A DNA stretch of 62,389 nt from Candidatus Poribacteria bacterium (GCA_009839975.1 VXOP01000361.1:1-62389), one strand, 5' to 3'; numbered from the stretch's first letter, positions 6,886 to 56,847 are shown. Translations and numbers: made by a program. The notes: a model not told the origin generated them from the sequence alone.

Positions 6886-6953
6886 TTGGTTCACACCCTT
6901 CTCATGTAGTTGAATCTTGTGTAGACTACTACTCTAAAAAAGGAGAATCCTAA

Positions 6954-8663: not shown

Positions 8664-9095
8664 AAACTCTGTGCCGTTCAAAATAGGCAGGTATCCGTTT
8701 TGGGTATCTGTCTTTTTCTTTTTATTGTTGCATTTAGCGTGGTGGGTATGCTATACTAATCAGAATTGGTTGTTAAGAGTTTTTAAATAAGAAAAGGGGG
8801 TTGCTTTCACAACACCCCCAAATAGGATAAAAATAGGATACCACAAAAAGCATGGAATGTCAAGTAAAAAAGACAAAAAAGTTCAATTTTTTTTTGTGTA
8901 TTCTATTTTTTTTATTATAGGAGAAGAAAGATGGTGCTAAATCCATCCTTGCGTTTAGGCATTTTGAATGCCACCCCAGTTTCGTGTCATAATTTAGAGG
9001 CTCCTGAGTTAGTTGAGTCGACTGAATTTAACATACCTCACCCAACTGTAGATACCACGATGCAGTTGCCTTTTGGTTTTAGTAGTGCGTTATCT
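8652..9095 (+). repeat. Truncated copy A of the rep-like gene control region plus its first ~55 codons
   Basis: Aligns by eye with 12243-12717 and with the reverse complement of 32275-32796. It lacks a ~110-nt block present in the other two copies. Homology stops at about 9095. Confidence 0.85.
8782..8828 (-). ncRNA. Predicted countertranscript (antisense) RNA, copy A
   Basis: Minus-strand TTGACA (8858-8863), 17-nt spacer, TATCCT (8835-8840). Followed by a GGGGG..CCCCC hairpin (8796-8819) and a T-run. Confidence 0.4.
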
Positions 9096-9233
9096 GATAC
9101 GTGTCCTTTAAAATACATTCTAACAGTTCATGAAATAGGGCGCTCACAACGCCCTATCTCCTTAACTCACAAAAGTATACCAAAATACACTACTTTTGTC
9201 AAGCATAAATATAGACACAGACTAAGTTTATAG
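8931..9233 (+). pseudogene. Truncated rep-like gene (only the N-terminal ~55 aa are homologous)
   Basis: MVLNPSLRLGILNATPVSCHNLEAPELVESTEFNIPHPTVDTTMQLPFGFSSALS matches the N-termini of 12553..13665 and 31326..32438, then runs into unrelated sequence. Confidence 0.8.
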
Positions 9234-9421
9234 CAACTTTTTCATAAAAAAAGATAAACATGCAAACACTAAAAGATATAAGCAAAACTTCCCTCACATT
9301 ACTATGCCTTAAAAAAATACCCTGGAAATAAAAAACAAAACAAAAAATCTTAATTTGTCAAATCACCCGTAGACATGGTAGAATAATATCAGATAGACTC
9401 AGAATAAAAAGGGATCAACAC

Positions 9422-9655
9422 ATGCCAAGAGGACGAAAACTTACAACAGAACAAATACAACAAGCAGCAGCAGACCGAAGAAATGGCATGACCTGGAAAG
9501 CACTTAGCATAAAGTATAAAGTCGCAGTCAATACGATTAGGTATAGTTTAGCCGAGTATTCTGATGAGTTTGCTCCAACCGTGACAATGCTACGACCACA
9601 ACTCGAAAATCAACTCAACACCGCACGATCCGAAAAAAAGGCAGGCACCCAATAA
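9422..9655 (+). CDS. Small HTH DNA-binding protein (resolvase/transposase-type HTH)
   Basis: GRKLTTEQIQQA..NGMTWKALSIKYKVAVNTIRYSL. Confidence 0.5.
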   Translation: MPRGRKLTTEQIQQAAADRRNGMTWKALSIKYKVAVNTIRYSLAEYSDEFAPTVTMLRPQLENQLNTARSEKKAGTQ

Positions 9656-12321: not shown

Positions 12322-12369
12322 TTTAAATAAAAAATGGGGGTTGTTGAAAACAACACCCCCCACACTGAT
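12322..12369 (-). ncRNA. Predicted countertranscript RNA, copy B
   Basis: Minus-strand TTGACA (12399-12404), 17-nt spacer, TATCCT (12376-12381). Hairpin at 12336-12361, followed on the minus strand by ATTTTTTATTT. Confidence 0.45.
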
Positions 12370-12552
12370 AAAAGTAGGATACCACAAAATTTTGGATATG
12401 TCAAGTAAAAAATGCATTTTTTTACGAATCCCTGTATTTTCCGATAGTGTTTGGTGCGATAGGGAAATCGCACCTACCGACTGGGTTAGGTCAAGGGGTT
12501 GCATAGCAAAAGCGTGTGTGTATTCTATTTTTTTTATTATAGGAGAAGAAAG

Positions 12553-13665
12553 ATGGTGCTAAATCCATCCTTGCGTTTAGGCATTTTGAATGCTGTTCCT
12601 GTTTCGTGTCATAATTTAGAGGCTCCTGAGTTAGTTGAGTCGACTGAATACAACATACCTCACCCAACTGTAGATACCACGATGCAGTTGCCATTTGGTT
12701 TTAGTAGTGCGTTATCGGAGTTGTTGTCTGGTGAGATGCGTTCTATTGATTTTTTATTATTGTGTGTATTTAATTATCGTAGCACTTATGAGAATGGTAA
12801 GACGTGGCGGACAGGCTTGCGTCTGCTTTCTGAACTTACCGATGTATCAGTTCGTTATATCCGCCAAAGATTATCCGATTTGAAGGACAAGGGTTGGTTG
12901 CATGTTTTGTCAGTTGGTATAAATACGGGTAGTCGTTATCAAATAGTGCATCACAATTGTGATCGTGATGACGTTCCGACAGATAAAAATGGTAATCCGT
13001 TGAAGTTTGCGATACCTCGTGGTGTTGGCGGTATTCTTGAAAGGTTGTTTTCTGGTGATATAAGTTGGAAGTCTGCGGTTGTATGGATAGTCATGAAGTA
13101 TCGCAGTGATTGGCAGACGGGCATAACGAATTCGTTGAGTATTGACAAGATACGCAAGTGGGTAGGTATGAGTCCGCAGACGGTCGTTAATTGTATAAAA
13201 GAACTCACGAAAGCGGGTTTAGTTAAGCGTTTGTCCAAGAAGCACGAGGCGGGTGTATATCAGTTGTATCCGAAACCTGATGGGAAACCGAAGCCTGTTT
13301 TCCGCAAGCGGAAGGTTAAGAAGGTTCGGACACCTGAAGATAAGGAGATGCGTGCGGATGGTGATTGGCGTTATAGCTTCAACGAGTTATGGAGAGTCAA
13401 TGTTGAAACGAATCAGATTCAACGTAGAAAGTCGCGGCGTTTTGGTATATGGCGTAATACATCGGAGCATGAGCGCTACACACAGATGCCGAAGTCTATG
13501 CGGGATGCTTTTGAAAAAGCTTATGAGTATTACCATCAAATTAAACGGGAATTAGGTGTTACCGATAGCGCACATAGCGTTACCCATACCGCACAGGACG
13601 TTACCCATACCGCACAGCAGGTTTTGGATGGTGTGGTTGGAGGCAATGGTAGTAAGGATTCGTAA
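12553..13665 (+). CDS. Rep-like protein with two winged-helix/HTH modules (candidate replication initiator)
   Basis: AGGAG RBS before the ATG at 12553. Two wHTH-like segments (LSELTDVSVRYIRQRLSDLKDKGWL and IRKWVGMSPQTVVNCIKELTKAGLV). Paralog at 55765..56847 next to parA. Confidence 0.6.
   Translation: MVLNPSLRLGILNAVPVSCHNLEAPELVESTEYNIPHPTVDTTMQLPFGFSSALSELLSGEMRSIDFLLLCVFNYRSTYENGKTWRTGLRLLSELTDVSVRYIRQRLSDLKDKGWLHVLSVGINTGSRYQIVHHNCDRDDVPTDKNGNPLKFAIPRGVGGILERLFSGDISWKSAVVWIVMKYRSDWQTGITNSLSIDKIRKWVGMSPQTVVNCIKELTKAGLVKRLSKKHEAGVYQLYPKPDGKPKPVFRKRKVKKVRTPEDKEMRADGDWRYSFNELWRVNVETNQIQRRKSRRFGIWRNTSEHERYTQMPKSMRDAFEKAYEYYHQIKRELGVTDSAHSVTHTAQDVTHTAQQVLDGVVGGNGSKDS
13558..13620 (+). repeat. 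Three tandem 21-bp iteron-like repeats inside the 3' end of the rep-like gene
   Basis: GTTACCGATAGCGCACATAGC / GTTACCCATACCGCACAGGAC / GTTACCCATACCGCACAGCAG. Confidence 0.8.
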
Positions 13666-13830
13666 ACAACCCAATTTCGCGTAACGCGCAGCTAGTTCAA
13701 AATTAATTAGGACCCAAGACGCGGACAACTTCAATTTTTTGTTTTTTTTGGATCAGCATCAGCGTTTTGGGGTTTGGTAACGGGTTCAAAAAACAACACT
13801 TAAGGGAAAGAGTCAGGTTTTTTTTTAATT

Positions 13831-13855
13831 TAGACTGATATTCTGTATCGGTCTA
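13831..13855 (+). other. 25-bp imperfect palindrome, candidate recombinase (lox-like) site 1
   Basis: TAGACTGATA-TTCTG-TATCGGTCTA within an ~80-bp block (TTAAGGGAAAGA...CGTCCT) conserved in three places. Confidence 0.45.
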
Positions 13856-13994
13856 TCTGCGTTGCAGCGTCCTGTCATCAGGACGGACGCATTCCCTTGC
13901 TTGGGGTGGATTAAGGGGTGTGGTATGTCAATACCTACTAACGATGTTACTGATTGTAAATGTCAAATTCTCTAAATTGTCTAATCTGTTAATT

Positions 13995-14303
13995 TTAGAA
14001 CCATCCGAACGGGGAGCGGCGGCTCTTCCAGATTAAAGTAACTTTCGTGCGTCTAATGCCTCGCTTGTCTGTCATATCACGCATCCTTATATCGTGCAAA
14101 CGCCCATAAAAACTGATACGCTCTGCTGATCGTATTGCACGAAAAAAAACATAATGCATCCCCGATGTCGCTTTCTCACCTGCCCGCATCCATCGCCACA
14201 TTGTCGTGCGATTTACGCCTACTTCTTTGGCTATATCCGACCATTGCCTACCTTTTTGTCTTAAATTCGCTATCTCAATTATTTTACTTTTTGTTAATTT
14301 CAT
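13995..14303 (-). CDS. HTH DNA-binding protein (phage small-terminase/transposase-HTH-like)
   Basis: IANLRQKGRQWSDIAKEVGVNRTTMWRWMR. Confidence 0.5.
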   Translation of the reverse strand: MKLTKSKIIEIANLRQKGRQWSDIAKEVGVNRTTMWRWMRAGEKATSGMHYVFFRAIRSAERISFYGRLHDIRMRDMTDKRGIRRTKVTLIWKSRRSPFGWF

Positions 14304-14654
14304 GTTCCTGATATCCCTTCAACCAAAATACTGCTTTTAATATGATGTTTTTGTTGCTTTTTTGACAGAAGAAATCAGACGTGTTCTGATATTTCCCCCC
14401 CCAAAAAAGCACTCACTTTTGTTGCTTTTTCCTGTTACTCTATGTTACGATTCAAAACCTCTCTATTTGTCATTGATGTTCTCCTTCCACTTTCACACCA
14501 TAAACATTGTTTGAATTTTAAAATTTTGAATGCACACAATCGCTTGTAACGCATTCTTCTTGACTAATTGCTATACCTTCCTCAAGGTATACTGTGAATT
14601 TCACGGTTTATTGAATTATCACTTGCTGGCACGACTTTCGGACGCCTGATCTCC

Positions 14655-16154
14655 TTACAGCAAAACACCTTGATTTTTGAGTTTTGCAATAAGTTGTTCT
14701 TGTGTGCCTGCTCCTTTTGTAGAGTTGCAAGCACCACACAACAACTGCAGATTGTCTATATCATCCGTTCCATCTGCTGATCGCGGGACGATATGGTCAA
14801 TTGTTAGGTTGCGTATCGGTAGCAAGTATTGACACCCGTTGCATTTGCCCTCTTGGATACCATATAACGTGTGCTTGTAGGATACAAAGACTTGCATTTC
14901 CGCCTCAGACAACACAATATCCGATTTTCTTATCCTATTTTTCTCTGCTTGTATCCACTCCTTGCTAAACAAGCCGCTTAACGTTAAACGTTTCTCTTTT
15001 GGCGTGTCAGTGCGTTCTGGCACATCCGTTCTGTGATTTATTTTACCAACAAGATGTCTCAACAATGGCATCTCTTTTTCTATACGCGATTTGACTAATT
15101 CAACAGCCTTTGGCGATAAATCAATACCTATCCACTTCCTATTTAGATTTTCCGCGGCAAGACACGTCGTAGCACACCCACAAAACGGATCCAAGACGAC
15201 ATCCCCGGCGTTGCTACTCGCTTTGATAATCCGATCAAGCAAAGATAACGGCTTCTGGGTAGGATAGCCTGTTCTCTCTTTTCCTGCTGCTATAGGTATA
15301 TCAATCCATAAACTTCCTATGGGTTTACCTTTATAATTATCTGCATAGGATTTTCTTAATGGACGTTTTCCTTCACGCCATATAATATCTCCTGCTTTAT
15401 CCATTTTAATTAATTTTTCTTTACTGACTCGCCATCCTGATGAATGTGGGTTTGAAATTCCTTTATATTCATAACATAAATTAGGTCTGTCTCCCATTGA
15501 CGGTTGACGAAATAAAGGGGTTGTTGTGTTATATTTTCTGCCATTTGTATCAGTATATGGAAATTTCTCATTTATTTCTAACTCTGATAGTGGTTGGGTA
15601 ACTAAGTTATGTAATAGATTATTGGATTTTGAATAGTGAAAAATGTTATCTGTGTCTTTGCCCAGTGATTTACTTTTATATTGACTACCTTTTGCCCTTC
15701 CTGATGCCCTTTGCCACACAATCTCGTTCCTGAAGTTATCCTGCCCGAACACCGAGTCCATCATCATTTTCAGATAATGACTCGCTGTTGGATCGCAATG
15801 CAGGTAGATACTGCCTTTCGGAGACAGGATACGGTGCATCTCTAACATACGAATTGACATCATGATGAGATATGCTTTCATCGCTTTACCGTGTGCTAAT
15901 TCCGCAGCGACGATGCATTGATAGAGTGATGGGTAATCCTCCGCTATCTGCCCGTGCCAGGCATTATCCACGTCATCTAGTGTCCACGAGTCTTTGAATG
16001 CTGCCCCTGCTGCCTCACTGCCTATCGGTGCAGAATAACTTTTATTACTATTGAAAGGTGGATCCAGATATATCAAGTCAATTGAATCTGAATTGATACC
16101 TTTGAGAACTTCTATATTGTCGCGTTCAAAGATGGTTCTGTTTTGAACATTCAT
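14655..16154 (-). CDS. Beta-class N4/N6 DNA methyltransferase fused to a C-terminal HNH endonuclease domain (paralog 1)
   Basis: AAGGAG RBS before the ATG at 16154. Motif IV DPPF precedes motif I (DPFCGCATT). C-terminal CNGC...IDHIVPRS..G.DDIDNLQLLCGACN. Confidence 0.8.
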   Translation of the reverse strand: MNVQNRTIFERDNIEVLKGINSDSIDLIYLDPPFNSNKSYSAPIGSEAAGAAFKDSWTLDDVDNAWHGQIAEDYPSLYQCIVAAELAHGKAMKAYLIMMSIRMLEMHRILSPKGSIYLHCDPTASHYLKMMMDSVFGQDNFRNEIVWQRASGRAKGSQYKSKSLGKDTDNIFHYSKSNNLLHNLVTQPLSELEINEKFPYTDTNGRKYNTTTPLFRQPSMGDRPNLCYEYKGISNPHSSGWRVSKEKLIKMDKAGDIIWREGKRPLRKSYADNYKGKPIGSLWIDIPIAAGKERTGYPTQKPLSLLDRIIKASSNAGDVVLDPFCGCATTCLAAENLNRKWIGIDLSPKAVELVKSRIEKEMPLLRHLVGKINHRTDVPERTDTPKEKRLTLSGLFSKEWIQAEKNRIRKSDIVLSEAEMQVFVSYKHTLYGIQEGKCNGCQYLLPIRNLTIDHIVPRSADGTDDIDNLQLLCGACNSTKGAGTQEQLIAKLKNQGVLL

Positions 16155-16254
16155 CACAAGACTCCTTTTGTCCATTTTACAGTTAATATTCTCTCTATAC
16201 ACATGTGCAGATATTTTGATTTTAGCATAACACCCGTTCAATTTCTACTACTGC

Positions 16255-16465
16255 GGAACATCGGTAACAACGGTAACAAGCATGCCATGAACCCTTACTG
16301 TTATCGCTTGTGCCACTTTCACTGTTGGTGGTAACAACGGTGGAACAACGGTAACATTTGTTCCGTTGTGCTTTTTGGTGGCACATTCAGTCGTGGTATA
16401 TGTTTATAGCGTTAATGTTACCGTTGTTACCGCACCTCCCATTACAAACCGATTTGGTAAACGGG
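16255..16465. repeat. Cluster of short GGTAACA/ACGGT repeats (iteron-like, candidate origin or operator)
   Basis: GGAACATCGGTAACAACGGTAACA (16255-16278), GGTAACAACGGTGGAACAACGGTAACA (16329-16355), inverted TGTTACCGTTGTTACCG (16416-16432), TTTGGTAAACGGG (16453-16465). Confidence 0.6.
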
Positions 16466-16467
16466 CA

Positions 16468-17892
16468 TTACAGGCTAATATCGTAATTATCATCTTTCGG
16501 ATAGTAAGGTCCGCGTTTTCTCGGCTGATGGATTTCTCCGTTCTCTACCATTTTGCGAAGTGTCTTTCTAATTAGACTATCCGAGACAGTGCCGCCTTTT
16601 CCGTCAGAGATTTCAATTTCTGATGGTGTCAGTCCATCTTTTGCGTCGTTAAGCAGGTCTATAATGTTGTTTCGCAGTTCTGACTGGTGGAACGTCTTTG
16701 CGTCTCCTTGTAGTTCCCATAAACCTATTGACGGATCAATTGTGAAAGACAATTCGCGTGTTGATATACGTTTGCCAGTTAAGTGTAAGGTTTTGGATCC
16801 TGAATCGTGCTGTAGCATCATCAGAGTATCCGCGGCTGCTTGAATCCCCGTTGACCCTTGTAGTTGATTAAAAGCATTGTCGGTATCAACTGCTTTGCGA
16901 GTATGCGTTATTAGGATAATGCACATATTTCTGCGGTTTGCGAGATTCTGAATTGGAATGACGACGTCGTAGTCGGTATCGTATGCTGTGCCTCTGGCAT
17001 TGCTTAACTGCGGTTTGACGCGATGCAACGTATCAATAATCAAAAGTTCTGTTTCTGTTTTGTCAAGATGAGTTTCAAGTAGTTTTATGCCTGCATTGTC
17101 CAAGACGAGAGTCTGGGTGTTGTCTATGATATGTAAGTTTGATAAGTCATGACTATTTTCTGTCAGTAAATCAATTCTGCCAAGTAAGAGATCCGGTGGG
17201 TCGTCAAAACATAGATATGTGACGTTGCGGGGTTCGTCCAGTTCTATTTTAGAAAAGACGGCTGCTCTGCTTGCAATCGCAACTGCGATATTTGTAGCAA
17301 AGAAGCTTTTACCAATTTTTGCGGGGCCGCCAAGAATTGCCAATCCTTCAGGTAGCATATCAGGTATGAACCATTTTACAGGCGGAACAATGCGGTCTTT
17401 CGCATCTGCATGTGTAAATGAATTGAGTTGCTTTGATGTAGATGTTTGGATATTCTCACCAACCTCAAGTATTTGCGACTGAATATATGCAATTTCAACG
17501 CTTTCATTGTATGCTAATTTTGTTATTTCGTTGGATATACTGATTATCGCCCTTCGTGTTGCGTAATCCTTAAGTATTCTCGCGTATACTACGGTGTTTT
17601 CAGTTTCAACAATCGGTGCCTGCAAGTCGTAAAGATAGTCAGGACCTCCAACACGATTAAGTTGTTCATTTATTTTCAAGTCATGTGCTACCAATATAGG
17701 GGTAACTCTTTCGTGTTTCTCAAATACTTTCAAGATGGTTGCATAAATCAGTTTGTGATCGGTTGTGAAAAATGCATCGGCAGAATTGCCTAACAAATCC
17801 TCAACGGCGGGTATTACTAATGGATTTATCATCATCGCGCCAAGCACTGCCTTTTCAGCATCGGCATCTTGCAAAAGTTTAATATCGTACAT
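16468..17892 (-). CDS. DnaB-N-terminal-domain / RecA-like AAA helicase (RepA/plasmid-phage replicative helicase type) with C-terminal wHTH
   Basis: GGAGG RBS before the ATG at 17892. DnaB-N-like AEKAVLGAMM...HKLIY. Walker A GGPAKIGKS. Walker B LLIIDTLH. Confidence 0.75.
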   Translation of the reverse strand: MYDIKLLQDADAEKAVLGAMMINPLVIPAVEDLLGNSADAFFTTDHKLIYATILKVFEKHERVTPILVAHDLKINEQLNRVGGPDYLYDLQAPIVETENTVVYARILKDYATRRAIISISNEITKLAYNESVEIAYIQSQILEVGENIQTSTSKQLNSFTHADAKDRIVPPVKWFIPDMLPEGLAILGGPAKIGKSFFATNIAVAIASRAAVFSKIELDEPRNVTYLCFDDPPDLLLGRIDLLTENSHDLSNLHIIDNTQTLVLDNAGIKLLETHLDKTETELLIIDTLHRVKPQLSNARGTAYDTDYDVVIPIQNLANRRNMCIILITHTRKAVDTDNAFNQLQGSTGIQAAADTLMMLQHDSGSKTLHLTGKRISTRELSFTIDPSIGLWELQGDAKTFHQSELRNNIIDLLNDAKDGLTPSEIEISDGKGGTVSDSLIRKTLRKMVENGEIHQPRKRGPYYPKDDNYDISL

Positions 17893-18135
17893 GTTTATCT
17901 CCTCCTTTTTTGAGTAAGGAGGCAACTGATGAGGGTATCAGCGACCTCGCTGGCTTTTGCAACCTCGCAATTCTCTTTTAGGGCCGCTTTGCCATTGAGG
18001 TAGGGATTCCTACCTCTCAGGGCATGCGCGGCGAGCCATACGAGGTTTTAATAGCGCGTGCGCTTTAGAAAAGGATTGGTAGTCCTTACGCACAGAACAA
18101 CTCCACAGCTGCTCCGCTATCATTATAACACTAAT

Positions 18136-18188
18136 AGTATAAATGAAAATAGTTGTAAATTCAAGCAAAAAATGCTAAAATTACAACT
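18136..18188. promoter_or_regulatory. Divergent overlapping promoters with an inverted-repeat operator
   Basis: Minus strand: TTGAAT (18159-18164), 17-nt spacer, TATACT (18136-18141). Plus strand: TTGTAA (18153-18158), 17-nt spacer, TAAAAT (18176-18181). Inverted repeat AGTTGTAA (18151-18158) / TTACAACT (18181-18188). Confidence 0.5.
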
Positions 18189-18213
18189 TAAATTATGGAC
18201 ATAGGGAAATTCC

Positions 18214-18576
18214 ATGAAAAAGAAAAAAAATGAAATCCTCGCTTATCTTTTTCAAGAAATAGAATGTCGCGGAAGAACGCAAACCGACGTTGCAGATGAA
18301 TTGGGATACAGTCAACAATATATCTCCAAATATATCCAAGACCACCAGGACAGATGGAACCGTCTACTAAAGGACACAGAACGCGAGATATCACTTTACA
18401 AGGCTCTGATTGAAGCAGTTAAGAGTACACCTGTTGTCGTAAACGGTGGAATAGATGCATACGTTGAGAGAATAGAAAGTGCAATTGATGCTGCCATCCA
18501 GGAACATAAACGCAAATATCCTCCGAAGCAGCTGCTTATCCCTGTTGTTTTTAATGTCATGAAAAAACCCAAGTAG
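18214..18576 (+). CDS. XRE/Cro-like HTH regulator
   Basis: RTQTDVADELGYSQQYISKYI. Confidence 0.6.
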   Translation: MKKKKNEILAYLFQEIECRGRTQTDVADELGYSQQYISKYIQDHQDRWNRLLKDTEREISLYKALIEAVKSTPVVVNGGIDAYVERIESAIDAAIQEHKRKYPPKQLLIPVVFNVMKKPK

Positions 18577-18630
18577 CCCTCCATCTTCTTACAGACAATT
18601 AAGGGAAAGATTTTGATTTTTTCTCTTGTT

Positions 18631-18655
18631 TAGACTGATATTTTATATCGGTCTA
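18631..18655 (+). other. Candidate lox-like site 2 (same orientation as site 1)
   Basis: TAGACTGATA-TTTTA-TATCGGTCTA with the same conserved flanks. Confidence 0.45.
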
Positions 18656-18836
18656 TTTGTATTGCATCGTCCTATAGTTCAGAGGCACGGATGTTTTATC
18701 TTTGTTTTTCTACAGCAGGGATTGCAGGGACTGATGTAACCACCACCCGATAGTCAACGATTATCAGAAAGTTGACAAAATGTGTCCATATTCTGCTAAA
18801 ATACGAACACCTTAAAATGTCAAGGAGACTTAAGAA

Positions 18837-19232
18837 ATGAAACACACAGATAGAACCGACACAGAAGCAGAGAACGAAGTTCGCGAAGCACGAGACGTGA
18901 CCGTGCATCTTCTCAATGCTGCAGTCATGCCACATCCAGGTTTCTACGATATGCAAGAGATTGACTCGACAGCGTTTGCCGAGTTGGTGCAGGAAGCGAA
19001 TGAATTGGGACAGCTGAAGCACTATATCGGATATGAATCAACTCTTGCCTTTGTCCAACATCTAACAGCAATAGACTTGGGGGGCAGGAACATGAATAAA
19101 ACGGAAATGAAGGATGGGGACTCGTTCCTTGTGATCCGACTTGTTTACCGTCCCACACAAGAGCAGAGAAGAACCGACAATCCGCAGCTTGAAGATTTTG
19201 AATTCTTTAAGGGCATCTACTCAAAAGCATAA
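18837..19232 (+). CDS. DUF1874 / STIV-B116-like small protein
   Basis: LLNAAVMP..G.Y....I....F..L......LKHYIGYESTLAFVQHL....L..RNMNKTEMKDGDSFLVIRL matches my memory of the family pattern. Not verified. Confidence 0.4.
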   Translation: MKHTDRTDTEAENEVREARDVTVHLLNAAVMPHPGFYDMQEIDSTAFAELVQEANELGQLKHYIGYESTLAFVQHLTAIDLGGRNMNKTEMKDGDSFLVIRLVYRPTQEQRRTDNPQLEDFEFFKGIYSKA

Positions 19233-19267
19233 AGGAAAAAATTGTCTCATTATTCCGTTCAGGTCTT

Positions 19268-19675
19268 TTAGGTCCTGTTGTGTATGCGGCGATGGCACCC
19301 TGAACAGAGTGCTGTAAGATCAGTGATTTTTTCGTTGAAAATACGTTTATATGTCTCGTGATGCACTTCTGTTGCTGTCGCACCACACTTTCTACATCTA
19401 TAACCTGCCATCTTCAATACTTTTCGCCTTTTCGCTTTCCATTTTTTAGAATTCAGATATACCCGGTAGTTGTCTCTCTTCAAATCCCATAGAATAGATC
19501 TCAACTCTTTTGATACATCACGATCACTCTTTTCAGATGATTTTGAAACTGACTTCGTAGATTTATCCGGCTCTCTTACCTGTCCAAGTTCAGATAAAAA
19601 TCTGTTGATCGCCTTAAGGTTCTTTCGGGAAAGAAGGGATGGTAGTATCTTAAAGAAGTTCATCTGTTTTTCCAA
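19268..19675 (-). CDS. HNH endonuclease-domain protein
   Basis: C-terminal CRKCGATATEVHHETY....LTALCSGCHRRIH. Confidence 0.65.
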   Translation of the reverse strand: MEKQMNFFKILPSLLSRKNLKAINRFLSELGQVREPDKSTKSVSKSSEKSDRDVSKELRSILWDLKRDNYRVYLNSKKWKAKRRKVLKMAGYRCRKCGATATEVHHETYKRIFNEKITDLTALCSGCHRRIHNRT

Positions 19676-19810
19676 TAATGTGATATAATAGTATCCCCGA
19701 TTATACCAAAAAACTGCGTTTAAGGAAACGCATATACAATCATATCTTCTATAGAGGGTAGGACATACAGAAATTTATAGAAATTAGCGGAATTTCGTAT
19801 GAAATTTAAA

Positions 19811-20728
19811 TCACCCGCTCTTACCATACTTATATCTTGCGATTGCACCGCGTTCTGCCAACTCCGCCCTCGCATAATGCGCGGGCATCTGTGGACTCTT
19901 CCATCTACCCGCTTCCTGCATATTAACAACTGATGCACCTGCCTGCGCGAGACTCACAGCAGAACCCACACGGAGAGAATGCCCCGAGATGAAACCGTCA
20001 AACCCTGCTGCATTTGCCCGCTTTACGATGATCTGTCGTGCAGATTGACACGTGAGTCTTTGTCTTTGGATATGATCTCCGCGTCGTATTCTTCTAAATA
20101 ACGCACCTTCAGTTATACTTGCACCAGTCCGGTATCGTGTCAATATCTTACGTGTGTCTTCACCCACATAAAGAGACTCACCGATGCCCGTCTGATCTGT
20201 CTTGCTTTTCCTAATCAGTAAGGTTTGCTTCTCAAAATCCGATATGTCTACTGCTACGACTTCAGCAACCCGCAGCAGACAATCAGACATCAAGCGAATC
20301 ATAGCACTATCACGAAGCCCTGCAACCGTCCGATCTGATTCAGCGAAAGCACAGACACGTTCTACTTGAGCCCATGTCAAGCCATCAACTTGCCCGCGTC
20401 CTCTGTCTTTCCCTTCGCGACGGATACCTGCAAGCACCCCGTTTGTCAGCGTGAGTTCTAAATCCGAATTGCCAGAATACTTTGCACGCCAGCGGACAGC
20501 ACTCACCACTTTTGCAATTGTGCCTGGAGATCTACCAACTTCATGCAGGTGTGTAAGGTATTCAGCCAACAGCACATCATCTAAAGACCTATCACCAAGC
20601 CACGAGGATAAAGCAGCCAAACAGCCACGATATCCCCGCAGTGTGTTCTCAGAGAGGGCCGATGCCAAAATTTTTTTTGTATTTTCCTGGACTGGCAGCC
20701 CGCTTGTTGCTTTCTGTAGTTTGTCCAT
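19811..20728 (-). CDS. Cre-like tyrosine recombinase
   Basis: C-terminal SGHSLRVGSAVSLAQAGASVVNMQEAGRWKSPQMPAHYAR carries the HxxR...W...Y catalytic signature and closely resembles Cre GHSARVGAARDMARAG...GGW...NY. Start chosen at MDKLQK. Confidence 0.8.
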   Translation of the reverse strand: MDKLQKATSGLPVQENTKKILASALSENTLRGYRGCLAALSSWLGDRSLDDVLLAEYLTHLHEVGRSPGTIAKVVSAVRWRAKYSGNSDLELTLTNGVLAGIRREGKDRGRGQVDGLTWAQVERVCAFAESDRTVAGLRDSAMIRLMSDCLLRVAEVVAVDISDFEKQTLLIRKSKTDQTGIGESLYVGEDTRKILTRYRTGASITEGALFRRIRRGDHIQRQRLTCQSARQIIVKRANAAGFDGFISGHSLRVGSAVSLAQAGASVVNMQEAGRWKSPQMPAHYARAELAERGAIARYKYGKSG

Positions 20729-20835
20729 CTTGCGCCTATTGGATAATAACTCATGATTTACACAAAAATCAATACCTAAATATAATACAGAATACCACAA
20801 ATCAACGGAAAATGCCCACCTACATTCTTTTCCGC

Positions 20836-22101
20836 TTACCGTTCCGCTAACTTCGCAACTAAATACTCCTGCCCCCGATTGCCTTTGATGCGGTTACAAT
20901 TGCCACAAAGCAATTGAAGGTTGTCAATATGATCCGTTCCCCCGACTGATCTCGCTATTATATGGTCTATCTCCAGGTGCTGAGCCTCAAAATGTGTGTT
21001 GCATCCATTACAATTACCTGCTTGTTCTCCATACAGAAATTTTTTGTTAGCAGAGGTGTTGTAAGGTGGTGTATTTCCTAAATCTGTGCGGCGTGGAATA
21101 TCTGTTCGGTGTATAATATTTTGAAACAAGCCTTGATCTGTTTTAATACGGTCAACAACTAAGTCAACTGCCTTTGGTGATATGTCAATGCCAACCCAAT
21201 TCCGTTGTAAACGCTCTGCTGCGACACACGTTGTAGCACACCCACAAAACGGATCAAAGACAATACCATCCTTATTACTGGACGCTTCAATGATAAGTTC
21301 TAATAGCGCTGATGGCTTTTGCGTGGGATAACCTGTATATTCTCTTGCTTGACTATTTAAAACTGATATATTCCACACATCGCTGATGGCTTTACCTTCT
21401 GGCATTGGAACATCATATATCGTCCTCCCTTCCTGCTCCCATGTAGGTAGCCTGCTTTTCACCTTTGGATTTTCTCTGTCATATATCCGAACAATCTTCT
21501 TCCCGCTACTTGATCCTGCATTATATCCAGCAGAAATTAACTGCTTTTGGCGTTCTGTTAGTTCACCGTATTGTTTATTGAAGATATAATTATCTGTAGC
21601 GGAATACATCATAATGATGTCGTGGTTGCGCTGGAAGTAACGCGCAGTATTTGTCCATTTTTCATAATGCCACACAATTTCATTCCTAAAGTTTTTCCTA
21701 CCAAAGATTGCATCCATTAGCAACTTCAGATAATGCGACATTGTTGGATCACAGTGCAAGTATATACTCCCATCTGTTTTCAAGATACGGTGCATTTCAA
21801 GCAAACGGGTTGCCATGTAAATCAGATACGATTTATCGGAATCTGTCATAGATGCTTGGATAACACGGTTAACAGCAGGATATTTGGTCTCAATCAAGTC
21901 AAGCCATGCAACATCTAAATCATTGAGTGACCATGTATCCTTGAATTCCGCACCTGCTGCTTGTGATCCGATAGGTGCAGCATAGTTAGCATTGCTATTG
22001 AAAGGCGGATCCAGGTATATCAAATTAATGCATTCAGAATTGATGCCGCGTAAAATAGGTAGGTTATCACCTGTGAATATTGTCTTGTTTGCTATGTTCA
22101 T
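20836..22101 (-). CDS. Beta-class N4/N6 DNA methyltransferase fused to a C-terminal HNH domain (paralog 2)
   Basis: GAGG RBS before the ATG at 22101. DPPFNS, then DPFCGCATT. C-terminal CNGC...IDHIIARS.GGTDHIDNLQLLCGNCN. Confidence 0.8.
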   Translation of the reverse strand: MNIANKTIFTGDNLPILRGINSECINLIYLDPPFNSNANYAAPIGSQAAGAEFKDTWSLNDLDVAWLDLIETKYPAVNRVIQASMTDSDKSYLIYMATRLLEMHRILKTDGSIYLHCDPTMSHYLKLLMDAIFGRKNFRNEIVWHYEKWTNTARYFQRNHDIIMMYSATDNYIFNKQYGELTERQKQLISAGYNAGSSSGKKIVRIYDRENPKVKSRLPTWEQEGRTIYDVPMPEGKAISDVWNISVLNSQAREYTGYPTQKPSALLELIIEASSNKDGIVFDPFCGCATTCVAAERLQRNWVGIDISPKAVDLVVDRIKTDQGLFQNIIHRTDIPRRTDLGNTPPYNTSANKKFLYGEQAGNCNGCNTHFEAQHLEIDHIIARSVGGTDHIDNLQLLCGNCNRIKGNRGQEYLVAKLAER

Positions 22102-22261
22102 CGGTTCATACCTCAAAGTAAAACATTGTGTAACGCGTCTTTTTTCATTATATCACAAATGGACAAGTTGAAGTAAAGCTGAATGATTTTTACCATCCAA
22201 CTTTTTCCCGGTACCACATTCTATCCTCCTTGAGTATATATGCGTTATTTTATTAATCATC

Positions 22262-22293
22262 ATATAATATGTATACATATTATATTTTACAAG
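22262..22293. repeat. 24-bp perfect palindrome plus TATATTTTACAA motif (centromere/operator-like)
   Basis: ATATAATATGTA|TACATATTATAT (22262-22285). It shares the core ATATGTATACATAT and the adjacent TATATTTTACAA with the parA upstream region (57194-57282). Confidence 0.55.
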
Positions 22294-22305
22294 TAAAATT
22301 AAAAC

Positions 22306-22335
22306 TTGACATTAATTGCATTTAGAATGTATAAT
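22306..22335 (+). promoter_or_regulatory. Strong sigma-70-type promoter (TTGACA-18-TATAAT)
   Basis: TTGACA 22306-22311, TATAAT 22330-22335. It faces the adhesin gene about 870 nt downstream. Confidence 0.55.
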
Positions 22336-22562
22336 ATGCTTGTCAGTTGAAATTTTGAAGAAAAAGGTTGATTAACAGACGCTACTATGTCCTTTAGAAT
22401 TCAGTCATAGATATTTTTTTCAGAGTTGGAACAATGGAAAACCGACAAAGAAACCGTCATTTTGTCCAAATATACGTGCCAGATGCCTATTGTTTGTGCG
22501 GAGATTGGGTTGGTGCCCTGGTGGCCTCGCTTGATGCTTCTGTTTTAACATCGGTTTTGAGT

Positions 22563-22573
22563 CCCCCCCCCCC
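22563..22573. repeat. Homopolymeric C11 tract
   Basis: Eleven consecutive C residues in the long untranslated region upstream of the adhesin gene. Confidence 0.9.
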
Positions 22574-22968: not shown

Positions 22969-23201
22969 CATTTGTTCTTCTTATACCCTATTATCATGTC
23001 GGTTTCGCAAGTTCTACCCGACCTACAATTACAGTGAAATTCAGAAGTATATGCACAATTTCGGTCCAATGGATATAAACCATTATACTGAAAGGTTTAA
23101 TAATGTCTATTTATGTGTTTTGATTTTTGATGTGTTATCAAGAATCTGAAGTACAATCTTGTCCTGATATAAAACTGAGCAAATACTCAGGAGGTATTGA
23201 A

Positions 23202-26200
23202 ATGATTATTGCAAATATGTTCAGATGGAAATATACGTTAATATCAATTAGTGCGGTGTTTATACTTTACATAATTCATTTTAGTAATATAGCATATTCA
23301 ATTCCAGTAAGTGAACGGACAGAGCAAGTTCAGGAAGAAATTAAAAGAGCCTTAGATATAGATGAGGTTTCACAAATAACTGATGCACATCTTGCACGTA
23401 TTACTGCGTTAAATCTTAAAAATAAAGATATTCACAGTTTAAAATCTGGTGATTTTGAAGGTTTATCAGGATTAAAAAACTTGAATTTATTTGGCAACAA
23501 TCTTGATGTATTACCTAATTCAATATTCTCTGGATTAAAGTCTTTAACAGTGCTTCGGTTAGGTGGTAACAATACATATCCACTTCAGACACCCATAAAA
23601 TTGGAAAAAATATCGGATGGCGAGTTTAGAGCGGTTGTTATAACAGCTGCGCCCTTTGATATAGAATTAGATATTAATATAGTGAATGGAACTACGAAGA
23701 ATTCAAAGATTACCGTAAACAAAGGTAGCACCTATAGTTCTATTTTGAATGTTGAGCGAATATATGGAACAACAGATATAGTAACTGCAGAAATAAAAGT
23801 ATTACCGCAATTACCAAAGTTCCATTATGGATATATATTTGTAAAATCTAATAGAAGCCCCATCAACGTTATTGATAAAGTTGAAGTAATTATTGATAAA
23901 ACGCCAGACGACAACGTGGTAGATGAAGTTATAGAAGAAGATGAAGTACAGGATGATAGTTTAGATAATCAAGAACCAGAAATAGAAACATCAGAAGTCC
24001 AAAATGATATAACCAATAATCCTCCCTATTTTGGGACCAACAATATATTTGTTCGATACATAGAAGAAAATGTTATAGCAGGCATCAATGTTGGTATGCC
24101 GATTACTGCCATAGATCAAGATCCGAATGATACATTGATATATAGTCTTGATGGATTAGATCAAGAATCATTTAGTATTGATTCAAAAAGCGGTCAAATA
24201 CTAACCAAACTGCCGTTGGATTATGAAAGCAAAAATTTGTATATTGTCAGGGTAGTTGTTTCTGACTATAAGGATAAAAATTGGGTTTATGTTGTTATAA
24301 AACTCATAGATAAGAACGATGGCAGGACAAACTTTGTGGAAGATTTTTTAGATATAAATGAAAGAACGCCAGCAGTTCAAGATGCAATTATTAGTGCAAT
24401 TCCAAATATTGATAATGCAGAAAACATAACTGTTGACCATCTTGAATCTATTACTGAACTTAATTTACGCGGGGCAGGTATTACACAATTAAAATCAGGC
24501 GATTTTTCAGGTCTTCACGGATTAACGAATCTAAATCTATACGGAAATATGCTCAGGAGACTTCCCGAGGATATATTTAACGGATTGATCTCACTAAAAT
24601 CGTTGCGCCTGGGTAGGAATATATTTGATCCCTTGCCAATTCTTGTATCATTTCAGAAGATAGAGTTTGACAAATATCAAGTCGTAATACCAACTGGAGC
24701 ACCTTTTGATATAAATATGTTGGTTAACAATAATACTTCTATTGATACTGTCAGGATCAAAAAGGGCGATACAAGAAGTAACGTTTTCACTTCTAAAGGC
24801 ATTCCAAAAATTGAACAGTTACCAACATTACCTCGTAATCATTTCGGATATACTATATCACAATCTACAGTGTGTCATAGAAGTGAACAAGTTATAAAAG
24901 GAATTACAAATTCGTTAGGTCAACCTGATTGCCGACTTATAAGCGACCTTGATCTACTATTAATTAGAGATTTAGATCTTAGCGGTATGTCTATTGAATC
25001 ATTAAAGTCATTCGATTTTTCGGGATTATTAATGCTGAACCACATTGATCTGAGTAACAATAAACTATCTAAACTTCCGGAAGGTATATTTGATAAATTG
25101 ACCAGAATTCAATCACTTAACTTACATAATAATCGTTTCGATCCATTACCAATAACATTCTTATTGGAAAAAGTCGGTAAAGACCAAATAAAGATAACTA
25201 TACCCGTATGTGCTCCATCTGAAATGAATATACCAGTGAGCGTTAAGGTTGGCGAAATTGTAAGTAATAAATTTATAGTACAAATATCTACTGGCAATTA
25301 TGAAAGTGATCTCTATACAATAACCAGACCCGATGATACATTAGATTATATTTATGTGGATATTGTTGATCCTATTGATATACCTAATACACATAGTGGA
25401 TATACATTTATAGGAAATACGAATACACCCTTAGAAATTTTTGAACGCATAAATGTTGCCCCCGTTTTCGTTGAAGGTGAAAAGACAAATCGCAATATAG
25501 CAGAAAATACGGACTCAGGCGAAAATATTGGAATACCAATTACAGCTACGGATATAAACAACGATAAACTGAATTATACGATTACTGGACAAGATGCACA
25601 GTCCTTCAGTATTGATAATAGCAATGGACAGATCATAACAAAGTCTCCACTCGATTATGAGACAAAATCAGAATATTCTATAATAGTTAATGTGTCAGAT
25701 GGTATACTAACAACTAGCATAATTGTCGCTATAAAAATCGATGATGTATATGAAAATATATATCCAGTTTTTGTTGAAGGCGAAAATACAACGCGTAATA
25801 TAGCAGAAAATACGGATATAGGTATAGGTATTAATGCTATAAAGGCGACAGATGCTAATGAGAATGATACATTAGAGTACACGCTTAGCGGTACAGATGC
25901 TTCACGTTTCAAAATTGATAGTGCCTCCGGGCAATTGATAACAAATTCGCAACTTGATTTTGAAACAAAATCATCTTATTCAATTATTGTCCATGCATCA
26001 GATAATAACGGTGGCACAGATTCTATCACAGTTAAGATTATAGTAAACGATGTCAACGAAGCACCTGTATTTATATCAGATCTATCAACACGTATAACTA
26101 TAGACGAGAATATAACTACAAGAACAAATATCGGTAAATTCACTGCTACGGATGAAGACAAAGATGACATTCTAAAATGGACTATAACCGGTGAAGAGGC

Positions 26201-29200
26201 ACAATATTTCCACATCATATCTACTACAGGACAACTTCAAACAAAATCACCACTTGATTATGAAACAAAATCTTTATATACATTTGATGTAAACGTATAT
26301 GATAATCACGGTTTGAGTGATACCATTAGTGTTGATATTGAAATAAGTGATATTGATGAAAATACTGCACCTGAATTTATAGAAGGTGAAACCGTAAGTA
26401 GATATATAGCAGAAAATTCTAATGCCGGTATAGATATCGGGTCTCCAATTACAGCTCGTGACAGTGAACAAGACTCACTTGTCTATACCATCCAAGGCAC
26501 AGATGCAAATACATTTGATATTATTAGCACGACTGGTCAATTAAAAACAAAAGATTCTTTGGACTATGAATTTAAGAATTCTTATTCAGTCCAAGTCATT
26601 GTATCTGACGGTAAACTCACTGATACAATAACGGTTACAATATATATTAATGATGTTTTTGAGATTGTAGATATAGAACCTGATATACCCGAAACTACGC
26701 AACCTGATATACCCGAAACTACGCAACCTGATACATCCGAAAACACGCAACCTGATACACCCGAAAACACGCAACCTGATACATCCGAAAACACGCAACC
26801 TGATATACCTGAAACTATAGAACCACAAACACCTCAAAATAACGCACCATATTTTATTAGTGGTATTCCTACATCACGTTCTATAAATGAAAATGTTCCG
26901 ATAGGCACAAACATTGGCAACCCTATAACCGCTAAAGATGATGACGATGGTGACAAATTGACGTATAGTTTGATAAATTCAAGTGCTGCCCCTTTTGAAA
27001 TTGACGCTACATCAGGCCAAATTAAAACAAGCACAAATGTAGATCATGAAAACAAGAATTCATATACTATAACAGTTCAAGTTTCTGATAGTAAACTGAC
27101 AGATACTATAGCAATCACTATTAATATAATAGACGTAAACGAAGCACCTGTTTTCAATGCTGGTAATACTGCAACACGTTCAGTGTTAGCAAATACCGAT
27201 AGTATTACTAATATTGGAAGCGCATTTTCAGTATCGGATGACGATGGAGATGCACTCACATGGACATTAAGTGGTACAGATGCAAGTTCATTTAGTATTG
27301 ATGATAAAGGTCAACTGAAGACTAAAGATAATATCGATTATAGTTTAAAACAATCCTATGCTATAACAATCACAGTATCTGATGGCACCTTAACTGATAC
27401 GATTAAGGTTACGATAAACACTATAGATACAAATGAAGCACCTGTTTTTGCATCTGATACTACTACCCTTGAAATTGCTGAAAATACAGCATCAGGGGTT
27501 AACATAGGAAGCCCTATCACAGCAACGGATGCAGATAATGATACACTTACATATACACTCAGCGGAACAGATGCAGCCGCATTCAGTATTCAAAGCACAT
27601 CTGGACAAATAAAGACTAAAGAATCAACAGATCATGAGACGAAAGATACTTATGAAGTCATAATCACCGCATCAGATGGGAACAAATCAGACACTATCAC
27701 TGTTACCATTGAAATAAAAGATGTCAATGAAGCACCCGTTTTCACAGACAGTAGTGATATTACGCGTGAAGTAAATGAAAATACAGCACCCAATGAAGAT
27801 ATTGGTGATTCTATAGATATATCCGCAACAGATCCTGATGATGGTGATACACTGACGTGGACACTTGGAGGAACAGATGCAGCATCTTTTAATTCCGAAA
27901 TAGATTCTGATTCAGATACACTGCAATTAAAAACTGTATCGGCTCTTGATTATGAAACTAAAAATAGTTATTCATTGAAAATTATTGTATCAGATAGTGA
28001 TGGCTTAGAAGATGATATTTCTGTAACGATAAACATAAATGATGTATACGAAGCACCACCTAATAGCGCTCCTGTATTTACAGATGGTGCTAATACTGAA
28101 CGATCAATCGCTGAAAATACAGCATCAGGGGTTAACATAGGAAGCCCTATCACAGCAACTGATGCAAATAATGATACACTTACATGGACACTCAGAGGAA
28201 CAGATGCAGCCGCATTCAGTATTCAAAGCACATCTGGACAAATAAAAACAAAAGCAGCATTGGATTTTGAAACCAAAACTACATATACTATAATTGTTAA
28301 TGTTAGTGATGAAAAGGGTGGAACTGATAGTATTACTGTCACTATCAAAATTACCGATGTCAATGAAAATCCAGGATTTTTAGAAGAAAGTGTTACATAT
28401 TCTCTAAATGAAAATACGGCATCAGGTAAAAATATAGGTAAACCATCTGTGAACAATCCTAATAAGGATAACTTGATTTTTGAACTTAAGGGTGATGGAT
28501 CTAATGCTTTTGATATTGTTTCTAACACAGGTCAATTACGAACTAAAGATATATTCAATTACGAATCAGATCCTACAAGCTATTCTTTTCAAATTGACTG
28601 TAAATTAGGTGAAAATACTATTGATACAATTGATATTACTGTAAATATTAGAGATATCAATGAACCTCCAAAATTTAATATTAATGCTAAAGGTCTATCA
28701 AAAGAGTTTACTATTAGTGAAAAATTATTGTTCCCGACTATTAGTAACACTATTGCCATAATAGATGCTACAGATGAGGATGCTATAGATAATGAAGAAT
28801 ATACAAGACATAATATGCGTTATTCTAACAGATTGAAATATAAGATTGCAAGTAGCAATAGCAATCTTTTTACAATTGAACAAAGCACCATTACCTTTAC
28901 AGGAATAAACGTGTCAAAGACTGGTGGCCAGTTATATTTATATTACTCATCAGATGAAGAAAAATATGATACTGAAAAAACATACAAACTTAAAATTATT
29001 GTAGAAGATAGCAAGTTAGCAAGAGATTCTATTGATATTACAGTAAAAGTGAAAAAAAATAGTCCGCCATCATTTGTGGATGGTGATTCTACCACACGCG
29101 AAGTAAGCGCAACTGCAAATCTAGGTACTTTTGTAGGCGAACCTATATCTGCAACAGATCCTGATGGAGATAAACTTGAATATAAATTTGTTTATTTAAT

Positions 29201-31100: not shown

Positions 31101-31133
31101 GCGCAGGCGGTGTGCCTAACTACGCAACGAACA

Positions 31134-55764: not shown

Positions 55765-56847
55765 ATGAGGTTTATTATGTCCGGACAAACGTCAAATACT
55801 TTCAATAAGTTTCATATCAACCTATCGAGTTCAGGTACAAATCCTGCTATTTATGCCAGTTTTTTAGAGTGGGAACCGATTGTCCTGTCTGATTCGTCTA
55901 TATCTGAGGAACATTCAAGCTCTGCTGTTCGTATTCCGTCAATAGTATCTCAAGTTTCAGGTGTATCGGAGGTCCCAGAGATCCAAGAGACGACGCATCA
56001 GGTGCCGTGTGGCAAGCATAGTATATTTGATCCTGATGAGAAAGTGCCTGGTTTTGTGAGAGTTGTTTATCTGCAGATGAACGAACATTCTAACTGGGAG
56101 TCTGGCGTGACGCATGCTTTATCGCTTCGCCATCTTGCTAAATCCGTGAATGTGAAAAACCATTCGCAAGTGCATCGTGCACTGCAATGGCTTATTGAGA
56201 ATGGGTGGATACTAGTTAAGGGAAAACGCAAGTCAGATGGAGCTTACTTCTACCAAATCGTCCATCACAAGTGCGACCCACAGGATGTGCCTGTTGACCG
56301 AGATGGAAGACCGCAGAAATGTGCCGTGCCAACGGGACCAGGATCACCAAGCCAACTACTCGCTGAAGGAAAAATAACTTGGAGGGTATTTCTGGATTGG
56401 ACAGTCCGAAAAATACATTCGTGTTGGACATCCGGAATCGCTAAAATGGCAGTCCGAGATACAGCTAAACTCGCAAAACTTAGTGTCAAGACCATAGCCA
56501 AAAATGCTAAGAAAATGATGGAAATCGGGCTGTTGAAACGGTTGTCCCCAAAGTTTAGACTCTCCGAGTATCAAATGTTCCCAAAACCTTATACAAATAG
56601 AAGGGAACGAACACCTGAGCCGTGTGCAAGCAAAAAAGCTATGAAATGCATCAACGGATGGTATTATAGCTACAATGGACTGTGGCGATTTCATAAGCAA
56701 ACTTTCCACATAAAAATGCAGGAACACGGAGGCAGATGGAGAGATAGCAACTCCGAAGAACTCGCTAACATAAATAGAAGTATATATAAAGACTTCTGTC
56801 AGTATATGCAAAGACTCGCGCGATTACCAAAGACGGCTTCACCCTGA
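55765..56847 (+). CDS. Rep-like double winged-helix protein (divergent paralog of the 370-aa family)
   Basis: Shares YQIVHHKCDPQDVPVDRDGRPQKCAVP (compare YQIVHHNCDRDDVPTDKNGNPLKFAIP), ..W......W......SG......LAKLSVKTIAKNAKKMMEIGLLKRLS and MFPKPY. Confidence 0.6.
   Translation: MRFIMSGQTSNTFNKFHINLSSSGTNPAIYASFLEWEPIVLSDSSISEEHSSSAVRIPSIVSQVSGVSEVPEIQETTHQVPCGKHSIFDPDEKVPGFVRVVYLQMNEHSNWESGVTHALSLRHLAKSVNVKNHSQVHRALQWLIENGWILVKGKRKSDGAYFYQIVHHKCDPQDVPVDRDGRPQKCAVPTGPGSPSQLLAEGKITWRVFLDWTVRKIHSCWTSGIAKMAVRDTAKLAKLSVKTIAKNAKKMMEIGLLKRLSPKFRLSEYQMFPKPYTNRRERTPEPCASKKAMKCINGWYYSYNGLWRFHKQTFHIKMQEHGGRWRDSNSEELANINRSIYKDFCQYMQRLARLPKTASP

Follow-up and report, generated by a model that had tools for sequence, protein, structure and literature searches.

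In the Type IIC/IIG restriction-modification (RM) enzymes (MmeI, BpuSI, Eco57I, Tth111II), the nuclease, the methyltransferase and the recognition module lie on one polypeptide, and the accounts of these enzymes in PMC2582602 and PMC3817140 describe them as often mobile and solitary. The HNH enzymes listed in PMC4081073 include MboII, MnlI and HpyAV, MboII being the cognate restriction endonuclease of the methylase M.MboIIA. Prophage fusions of a ParB fold with an N6_N4 methyltransferase are enriched on mobile elements and are of unknown function (PMC12704722), and for sponge symbionts an enrichment of RM systems and their lateral transfer have been reported (PMC8163846). Here we analysed two genes, open reading frame (ORF) A and ORF B, each encoding a methyltransferase-HNH fusion, in a 62,389-nucleotide stretch of DNA from a Candidatus Poribacteria bacterium (GCA_009839975.1, VXOP01000361.1:1-62389), hereafter the window. 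We propose that ORF A and ORF B would be single-chain RM enzymes, two copies with different specificities, and we give this reading, on the comparative evidence below, a probability of about 0.55.

The two fusion proteins and their family

ORF A lies at 14655..16154 on the minus strand and encodes 499 amino acids (aa), and ORF B lies at 20836..22101 on the same strand and encodes 421 aa. Their ATG start codons, at 16154 and 22101, respectively, are preceded by Shine-Dalgarno-like sequences (AAGGAG for ORF A, GAGG for ORF B) and agree with the gene calls of an independent Poribacteria assembly; both genes stop at TAA. We searched the two proteins with the Pfam hidden Markov models. The results showed an N6_N4_Mtase domain (PF01555) in ORF A (E 1.7e-41, aa 25-355) and ORF B (E 1.5e-50, aa 25-315), followed by an HNH domain (PF01844) in ORF A (E 2.7e-13, aa 438-482) and ORF B (E 1.7e-12, aa 364-409). 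All scores lay well above the family cut-offs, with 143 and 173 bits against 26.7 for the methyltransferase and 50.3 and 47.7 bits against 21.4 for HNH in the two ORFs. An earlier, sequence-only reading of the window had placed two ORFs of methyltransferase-linker-HNH layout at these positions, and both the layout and the motifs it quoted (DPPF, FCGCATT, the linker HRTD(V/I)P.RTD and the HNH core) were recovered in each protein.

In ORF A, the methylase part contains DPPF (aa 31-34), a target-recognition domain (TRD) at about aa 148-295 and DPFCGCATT (aa 322-330), followed by the linker HRTDVPERTD (aa 374-383), which comes with an insertion of roughly 31 aa, and by the HNH motifs CNGC (438-441), DH (453-454) and NLQLLCGACN (468-477). 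The corresponding parts of ORF B are DPPF (aa 31-34), a TRD at about aa 145-256, DPFCGCATT (aa 283-291), the linker HRTDIPRRTD (aa 331-340), and CNGC (364-367), DH (379-380) and NLQLLCGNCN (394-403). In both proteins motif IV stands N-terminal to motif I, which is the beta-class order, and the HNH reads CNGC...IDHI...NLQLLCGxCN, with both CxxC zinc pairs as well as DH, N and N. By domain content, each ORF encodes a beta-class methyltransferase joined to a complete C-terminal HNH. The two proteins share 42% identity (E 3e-125), indicating that they are paralogues.

Both domains occurred together in all 120 of the best database relatives of ORF B (60-99% identity) and in 118 of the 120 best relatives of ORF A. 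The two exceptions, P0299 and P0340, were considered as natural HNH-less or split forms and were rejected; they are frameshifted, with the HNH still encoded downstream. When the linker and HNH were used alone as the query, 743 representatives of 50%-identity clusters were found at E <= 1e-10, and in the best-listed matches the domain was mostly C-terminal. A scan of one genome per species gave at least 589 loci of the fusion family. Taxonomy and neighbourhoods were assessed for the closest 80 of these loci (43-73% identity), a sample that does not allow the family to be assigned to a single niche. These closest members spanned more than ten phyla, and their groups included Poribacteria, Chloroflexota/Dehalococcoidia, Acidobacteriota, Alpha- and Gammaproteobacteria, Rhodothermales, Acidimicrobiia, Opitutales, Bacteroidia, Planctomycetes and Thermodesulfobacteriota. 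Judging by isolate names, nearly all of the 80 loci come from metagenome-assembled genomes (MAGs) of sponge, and in some cases coral, holobionts.

The full fusion was found by tblastn in no PLSDB or INPHARED record, in which the methylase part alone matched at 30-39% identity; in IMG/VR, about nine of the best 80 matches ran through the HNH. The relatives carry only the database names 'DNA methyltransferase' or 'HNH endonuclease', and no paper on a methylase-HNH fusion and no characterised function was found in the literature, REBASE entries lying outside this search, in line with the sequence-only reading, which knew of none. That reading had also allowed that the fusion might prove to be a common, already characterised orphan-methylase family, or its HNH degenerate. 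The fusion is indeed common in metagenomes; as far as the literature shows it is uncharacterised, and its HNH residues appear intact.

The motif pattern DH..N..CxxCN was present in 116 of the 120 closest relatives of ORF B, and DPPF in 119. In alignments of 21 and 101 members, the N- and C-terminal frames of the protein were near-invariant and the linker and HNH core were kept. Residues R332, R338, C364, C367, N394, C399, C402 and N403 (ORF B numbering) were invariant among the 101 sequences, and D379 and H380 were at least 90% conserved. We then compared ORF B with a 94%-identical copy. The results showed a ratio of non-synonymous to synonymous substitution rates (dN/dS) of 0.08 overall and 0.02 in the HNH for this one close pair, the HNH changes being 20 synonymous and 2 non-synonymous. 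The family, HNH included, appears to be under purifying selection.

An AlphaFold model of ORF B built from 21 sequences was too poor for use (predicted local distance difference test, pLDDT, 59.6), and the model from the 101-sequence alignment reached a pLDDT of 76.6. Foldseek searches with the latter returned methylases only, with M.MboIIA at the top (E 1.9e-14) and M.RsrI and M.BceJIV also among them; no solved structure among the matches spanned both fusion domains. By structure and sequence together, the best matches of the methylase part were M.MboIIA, M.RsrI and EcoP15I Mod, all three of which are RM methylases, with M.BceJIV near the top. The top fold matches are N6-adenine enzymes, and N4-cytosine enzymes match lower down. 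DPPY/F is usual for N6-adenine and SPPY/F for N4-cytosine methylation, with exceptions. The methylated base is probably N6-adenine, judging from DPPF and the best fold matches. The HNH of the fusion resembles those of Cas9, IscB and group II intron maturases, a type that normally cuts one strand. Several beta-class methylases are dimers.

A homologue on the Bradyrhizobium sp. Ash2021 plasmid NZ_CP100605 (WP_309185678; L091:4956-6674) is a methylase-Mrr_cat fusion. Its methylase is 33% identical over aa 8-392 and its nuclease occupies the same C-terminal position, but the nuclease fold is PD-(D/E)XK (Mrr_cat, E 6.8e-6) in place of HNH. Exchange of one cleavage domain for another is typical of restriction enzymes. 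Directly after this gene, on its downstream side, comes one for an S1/P1 nuclease.

Exchange of recognition domains and mobility of the gene

In beta-class enzymes, the TRD sits in a central block, here between NEIVW and GYPTQKP. This block was hypervariable, with 12 types among 38 proteins. Similarity between TRDs was undetectable in 92% of the pairs of these proteins, whereas the frames had median identities of 67% (N block) and 60% (C block). The same pattern is seen in ORF A and ORF B. Their frames are 60% and 47% identical and their TRDs show no detectable similarity, which argues for two specificities, as the sequence-only reading had predicted from the two diverged copies. Other members combine these parts differently: P0031 has the frame of ORF B (94% and 86%) with an ORF A-like TRD, and P0013 has the TRD of ORF B (85%) within another frame. 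Frames and TRDs appear to have been reassorted within the family.

Fusion genes also occurred in tandem. Four lie side by side in a Flammeovirgaceae MAG (CBDATB010000013; L039:6427-12347) and three in a Bacteroidia sequence (BNXT01000022; L069:27-3738). Within these arrays the frames are 93-100% identical and the difference is confined to the TRD block, so that the arrays look like specificity cassettes. Diversification of specificity in such a pattern is known from Type I hsdS and Type III mod genes.

We clustered the ORFs of the 80 neighbourhoods, taking 8-kb flanks at each locus. No conserved partner, whether restriction enzyme, helicase or controller, was found in this clustering, indicating that any nuclease partner of the methylase is the fused HNH. 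The sole recurrent neighbour was an IS1595-family transposase (Zn_ribbon_IS1595 + DDE_Tnp_IS1595), present at 17 of the 80 loci. At four of them, the fusion gene and the transposase lie together between terminal inverted repeats (L022:6563-9504, L025:6951-9401, L059:~6240-9563 and L077:6893-9508). The repeats begin GGG(G/A)ATTAT, with an end motif of the type GGGAATTAT, and 8-bp target duplications were found at all four loci (AAATCTTT, CTAGCG(A/C)G, CAAATGAA and TTTCTGAT, respectively). A further cargo locus, L020:7657-10263, has the same end motifs, the duplications being shown for the other four only. Hosts of the IS1595-borne copies were Alphaproteobacteria, Dehalococcoidia, Poriferihabitaceae and other MAGs. 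In the window itself a transposase gene is absent, and the end motif is matched just once, at chance level and far away at 60098, so ORF A and ORF B do not qualify as IS1595 cargo.

Relatives were found in varied surroundings. One of 75% identity shares a phage-like contig with genes for two other methylases and a P22-type portal, one of 91% adjoins an OLD-family ATPase gene, and one of 95% has, four positions upstream, a gene with a weak AbiEii-like match. The 95% relative (L081:5488-6753; 94% at the nucleotide level) is homologous to ORF B from the ATG exactly to the TAA, and the 91% relative (L087:1326-2591; 88% at the nucleotide level) from the ATG to 28 nt before the stop. At both loci the flanks cannot be aligned to the window, the neighbouring genes are unrelated, and the start codon of the fusion gene directly adjoins or overlaps the stop codon of the ORF called before it. 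The synonymous rate (dS) was also uneven along the gene in the 94% pair examined above, at 0.32 in the N block, 0.10 in the TRD, 0 in the linker and 0.84 in the HNH. This unevenness, together with the reassortment of frames and TRDs, suggests that the ORF-exact edges may stem from allelic replacement, with recombination inside the conserved ends of resident family members.

Most members are solitary chromosomal genes or insertion-sequence cargo, with no replication or packaging genes nearby. The fusion appears to be a widespread, self-contained mobile gene, not peculiar to the element in the window. The sequence-only reading had treated it as a special device of a replication/recombination cluster; this view was not supported, as the gene is found mostly alone in chromosomes, in IS1595 transposons, on phage-like contigs and in arrays, with no conserved partner.

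The element around the fusion genes and other genes of the window

ORF A and ORF B bracket a group of genes for replication, regulation and recombination. These encode a replicative, RepA-type helicase (DnaB_N + AAA_25; 16468..17925, minus strand; AAA_25 1.1e-20, DnaB 2.7e-20, phrog_19 3.5e-28), a Cro/CI-type HTH_3 regulator (18214..18576, plus strand; Pfam 8.5e-6), an STIV_B116-like protein, formerly DUF1874 (18837..19232, plus strand; Pfam 1e-8), a small stand-alone HNH protein (19268..19675, minus strand) and a tyrosine recombinase with Phage_integrase and SAM-like N domains (19811..20800, minus strand). The small HNH protein (CRKCG ... HH ... CSGCHRRIH) matched phrog_119, 'HNH endonuclease', at 2.4e-12 and Pfam HNH at only 0.005. 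Pfam and PHROG searches thus found every bracketed gene named in the sequence-only reading, with the recombinase, called Cre-like there, being Xer-like. Downstream of ORF A, a 102-aa helix-turn-helix protein is encoded at 13995..14303 (minus strand), within a conserved module of 9.1 kb, and a 388-aa Rep-like initiator (HTH_36; replication initiation, O-like; Pfam, PHROG) at 12499..13665 (plus strand).

In a second Candidatus Poribacteria MAG, an independent contig of 9,112 bp matched window positions 13502-22569 at 99% and carried both fusion genes and those between them, indicating that their arrangement is not an assembly artefact. The stretch was also present in sponge-metagenome runs, and a search for RNA runs covering the region returned none. 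Rep-like, helicase and tyrosine recombinase genes are present here, and the unit recurs in another MAG. ORF A and ORF B would belong to a putative plasmid-like or integrative replication/recombination module of ~9 kb.

The module is set in a region with several related, partly decayed modules and repeated Rep-like copies. A 1,393-nt repeat at 12357-13749, which holds the Rep-like gene, has a 96% inverted copy at 31242-32634, also with a Rep-like gene. The two arms surround 17.5 kb that include both fusion genes, and inversion of the enclosed DNA could occur. A third Rep-like copy, at 8649-9097, is shortened to the 5' end and upstream region of the gene, and a fourth, more distant HTH_36 Rep-like gene lies at 55765..56847. 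A tyrosine recombinase remnant at 37025-37677, in inverted orientation and 77-83% identical to 19848-20677, suggests that an element of this kind is present a second time in decayed form. An AT-rich palindromic repeat (…CATATAATATGTATACATATTATAT…) at 22246-22300, just upstream of ORF B, recurs at 57177-57246 beside the distant Rep-like gene and is a possible origin or element boundary. A terminator-like hairpin (TAGACTGATAT…ATATCGGTCTA) is repeated at 13818-13892, 18618-18692 and 31119-31172, after Rep-like and HTH_3 genes. In a promoter and terminator scan, promoters did not rise above background, and Rfam and tRNA scans of the window found nothing.

Elsewhere in the window, a 1,198-aa protein encoded at 50531-54127 (minus strand) is a Type IIG-like RM candidate (Pfam Eco57I methylase, 9e-28; PADLOC REase_MTase_IIG, 2.7e-57) and forms the third RM-type gene of the window, of classical single-chain architecture. 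The segment 22100-30000 has a G+C content of 33%, against 41-44% around it, and contains a gene at 23127-29717 for a protein of 2,196 aa, in which apparent leucine-rich repeats, many apparent cadherin-like repeats and what resembles a type IX secretion system (T9SS)-type C-terminal sorting signal were seen by eye. This gene looks like a horizontally acquired, eukaryote-like adhesin, as described for sponge symbionts. An FRG-domain protein with tetratricopeptide repeats (48602-50368) and a WD40 protein (54221-55348) likewise have eukaryote-like repeats of the kind reported for sponge symbionts.

Proposed single-chain restriction-modification, other readings and known systems

Several lines of evidence argue for single-chain RM. 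Both active sites are intact and selected, and no partner gene is conserved. The TRD has diversified and occurs in arrays, a pattern known from Type I and Type III systems. Mrr_cat replaces the HNH in the Bradyrhizobium homologue, and the methylase is most like RM methylases, including M.MboIIA. Finally, the gene rides on mobile elements, on which RM systems act as defence and addiction modules.

Under this reading, the central, exchangeable TRD of the beta-class methylase would read a short DNA motif, the methylase part would mark this motif on resident DNA, and the HNH, tethered by the HRTDxPxRTD linker, would cut DNA in or close to copies of this motif that lack methylation. The HNH would presumably act as a dimer or from two sites, because an HNH of this type cuts one strand. 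A single TRD would set both activities, so that a TRD swap would yield a new, internally consistent specificity. The two copies may serve the ~9 kb element as defence and addiction (post-segregational killing) modules, and the gene family may behave as a selfish mobile unit spreading between phyla that, by their MAG names, mostly share sponge or coral holobionts. Among the functions that the sequence-only reading had offered, the comparative evidence favours single-chain RM or self-marking and killing, and speaks against packaging or nicking.

Some observations weigh against RM. The catalytic Asp or His is lost in 4 of the 120 relatives with the methylase apparently intact, indicating that the methylase can be retained on its own. 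Cultured plasmids and phages seldom carry the fusion, which makes up a minority of viral methylase homologues, and PADLOC and NCBIfam see only a generic methyltransferase plus a Cas9/IscB-like HNH. Double-strand restriction would require the dimer or two-site mechanism, given that HNH domains usually nick one strand. For a constitutively active nuclease fused to its own methylase, becoming established in a new host is also a problem, and no controller gene was evident, none being conserved in the 80 neighbourhoods.

Three further readings are disfavoured mainly by the diversification of the TRD, the solitary contexts and the conservation of catalytic residues. In the first, which we regard as unlikely, the gene is a homing-type selfish gene, in which an orphan methylase protects or marks mobile DNA and the HNH serves to spread the gene and not to restrict. 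Close copies of ORF B do sit in unrelated contexts with homology running from the ATG, and to the stop in L081, the spread across phyla is extreme, the HNH is akin to nucleases that serve mobility in group II intron maturases and in IscB, and solitary methylases are common on phages and plasmids. However, homing needs homologous flanks, and those seen here are unrelated; at five or more loci, mobility comes from the IS1595 transposase and not from the HNH. Rapid TRD diversification and tandem arrays have no obvious use for a nuclease that targets its own empty site, and the Mrr_cat replacement points to a generic cleavage module.

A variant that would join the two activities, a 'homing methyltransferase', seems to us quite improbable. 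Here the gene would be an autonomous selfish element, the HNH would break unmethylated sites in naive genomes or in diverged alleles already resident, and repair templated by an incoming copy would install the gene ORF-precisely, community-wide and across phyla, with the TRD reprogramming methylation and cleavage together. If true, the fusion would be a natural modular methylase-nuclease scaffold.

We think it very unlikely that the protein is an orphan regulatory or anti-restriction methyltransferase whose HNH is silent and acts only as a zinc-finger DNA-binding or dimerisation module. The generic database names would fit such an enzyme, and a few members do miss the catalytic His. Against this, about 97% of close relatives retain the catalytic D-H, N and N, the HNH dN/dS of 0.02 in the single close pair is low, and the seemingly HNH-less P0299 and P0340 are the frameshifted copies described above. 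Least probable of all is an element-maintenance nickase, in which the HNH nicks an element site for replication, transfer or packaging and the methylase only binds DNA or marks the element: the fusion genes do flank a replication/recombination module with a Rep-like gene, the AT-rich palindrome does lie beside ORF B, and phage HNH proteins assist packaging according to the account in PMC3592412, but most members are solitary or insertion-sequence cargo away from replication and packaging genes, and two different TRDs in one element and arrays of three to four genes misfit a single cis-site function.

If the single-chain RM reading is true, the fusion represents an unrecognised architecture of about 400-500 aa, with a beta-class methylase, an internal TRD and a C-terminal HNH. 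The family is abundant in public data yet generically named, and current defence-system finders therefore miss it. Its TRD cassettes, tandem arrays and near-identical frames form a natural series from which the specificity code of beta-class TRDs could be learnt, and the same series could be used for building enzymes of new specificity. Near-identical frames over more than ten phyla, partly as IS1595 cargo, also provide a traceable case of community-wide gene flow, which published sponge-symbiont surveys have inferred only statistically. The architecture alone is only moderately surprising; what makes this a testable system is its arrayed TRDs, its carriage by IS1595, its spread across phyla and its ORF-exact replacement.

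Among the known systems, the ParB-fold fusions resemble ORF A and ORF B in that a methylase of the same Pfam family is fused to another domain that acts on DNA. Their partner, however, is an N-terminal ParB/CTPase fold and not a C-terminal HNH, and no nuclease role has been established for them. Type III Mod proteins (EcoP15I, Mbo45V) share the beta-class motif order and the exchanged central TRD with the fusion, and match it in sequence and fold. Type III systems require a Res helicase-nuclease subunit encoded beside mod; no res-like gene is adjacent to ORF A or ORF B or conserved in the 80 loci, and the helicase neighbouring the fusion genes is of DnaB/RepA type, not Res, so the two proteins do not belong to Type III. 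The Type IIS systems MboII, MnlI and HpyAV likewise pair HNH chemistry with a beta-class N6-adenine methylase. There the nuclease stands alone and recognises DNA through a dedicated domain, whereas the HNH of the fusion lacks such a domain and is part of the same chain as the methylase.

With the Type IIC/IIG enzymes, the fusion shares the single chain and, by prediction, one recognition module for both activities. The order of parts differs: Type IIC/IIG enzymes begin with a PD-(D/E)XK nuclease at the N-terminus, continue with a gamma-class methylase and end in a C-terminal TRD, whereas the fusion has a beta-class methylase with an internal TRD and then a C-terminal HNH. Type IIG models were absent from the best 25 PADLOC matches, all of which were MTase_II, MTase_III or oMTase, and ORF A and ORF B fall outside Type IIG/IIC by architecture. 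Most likely, the fusion would be Type IIC-like in function and new in architecture.

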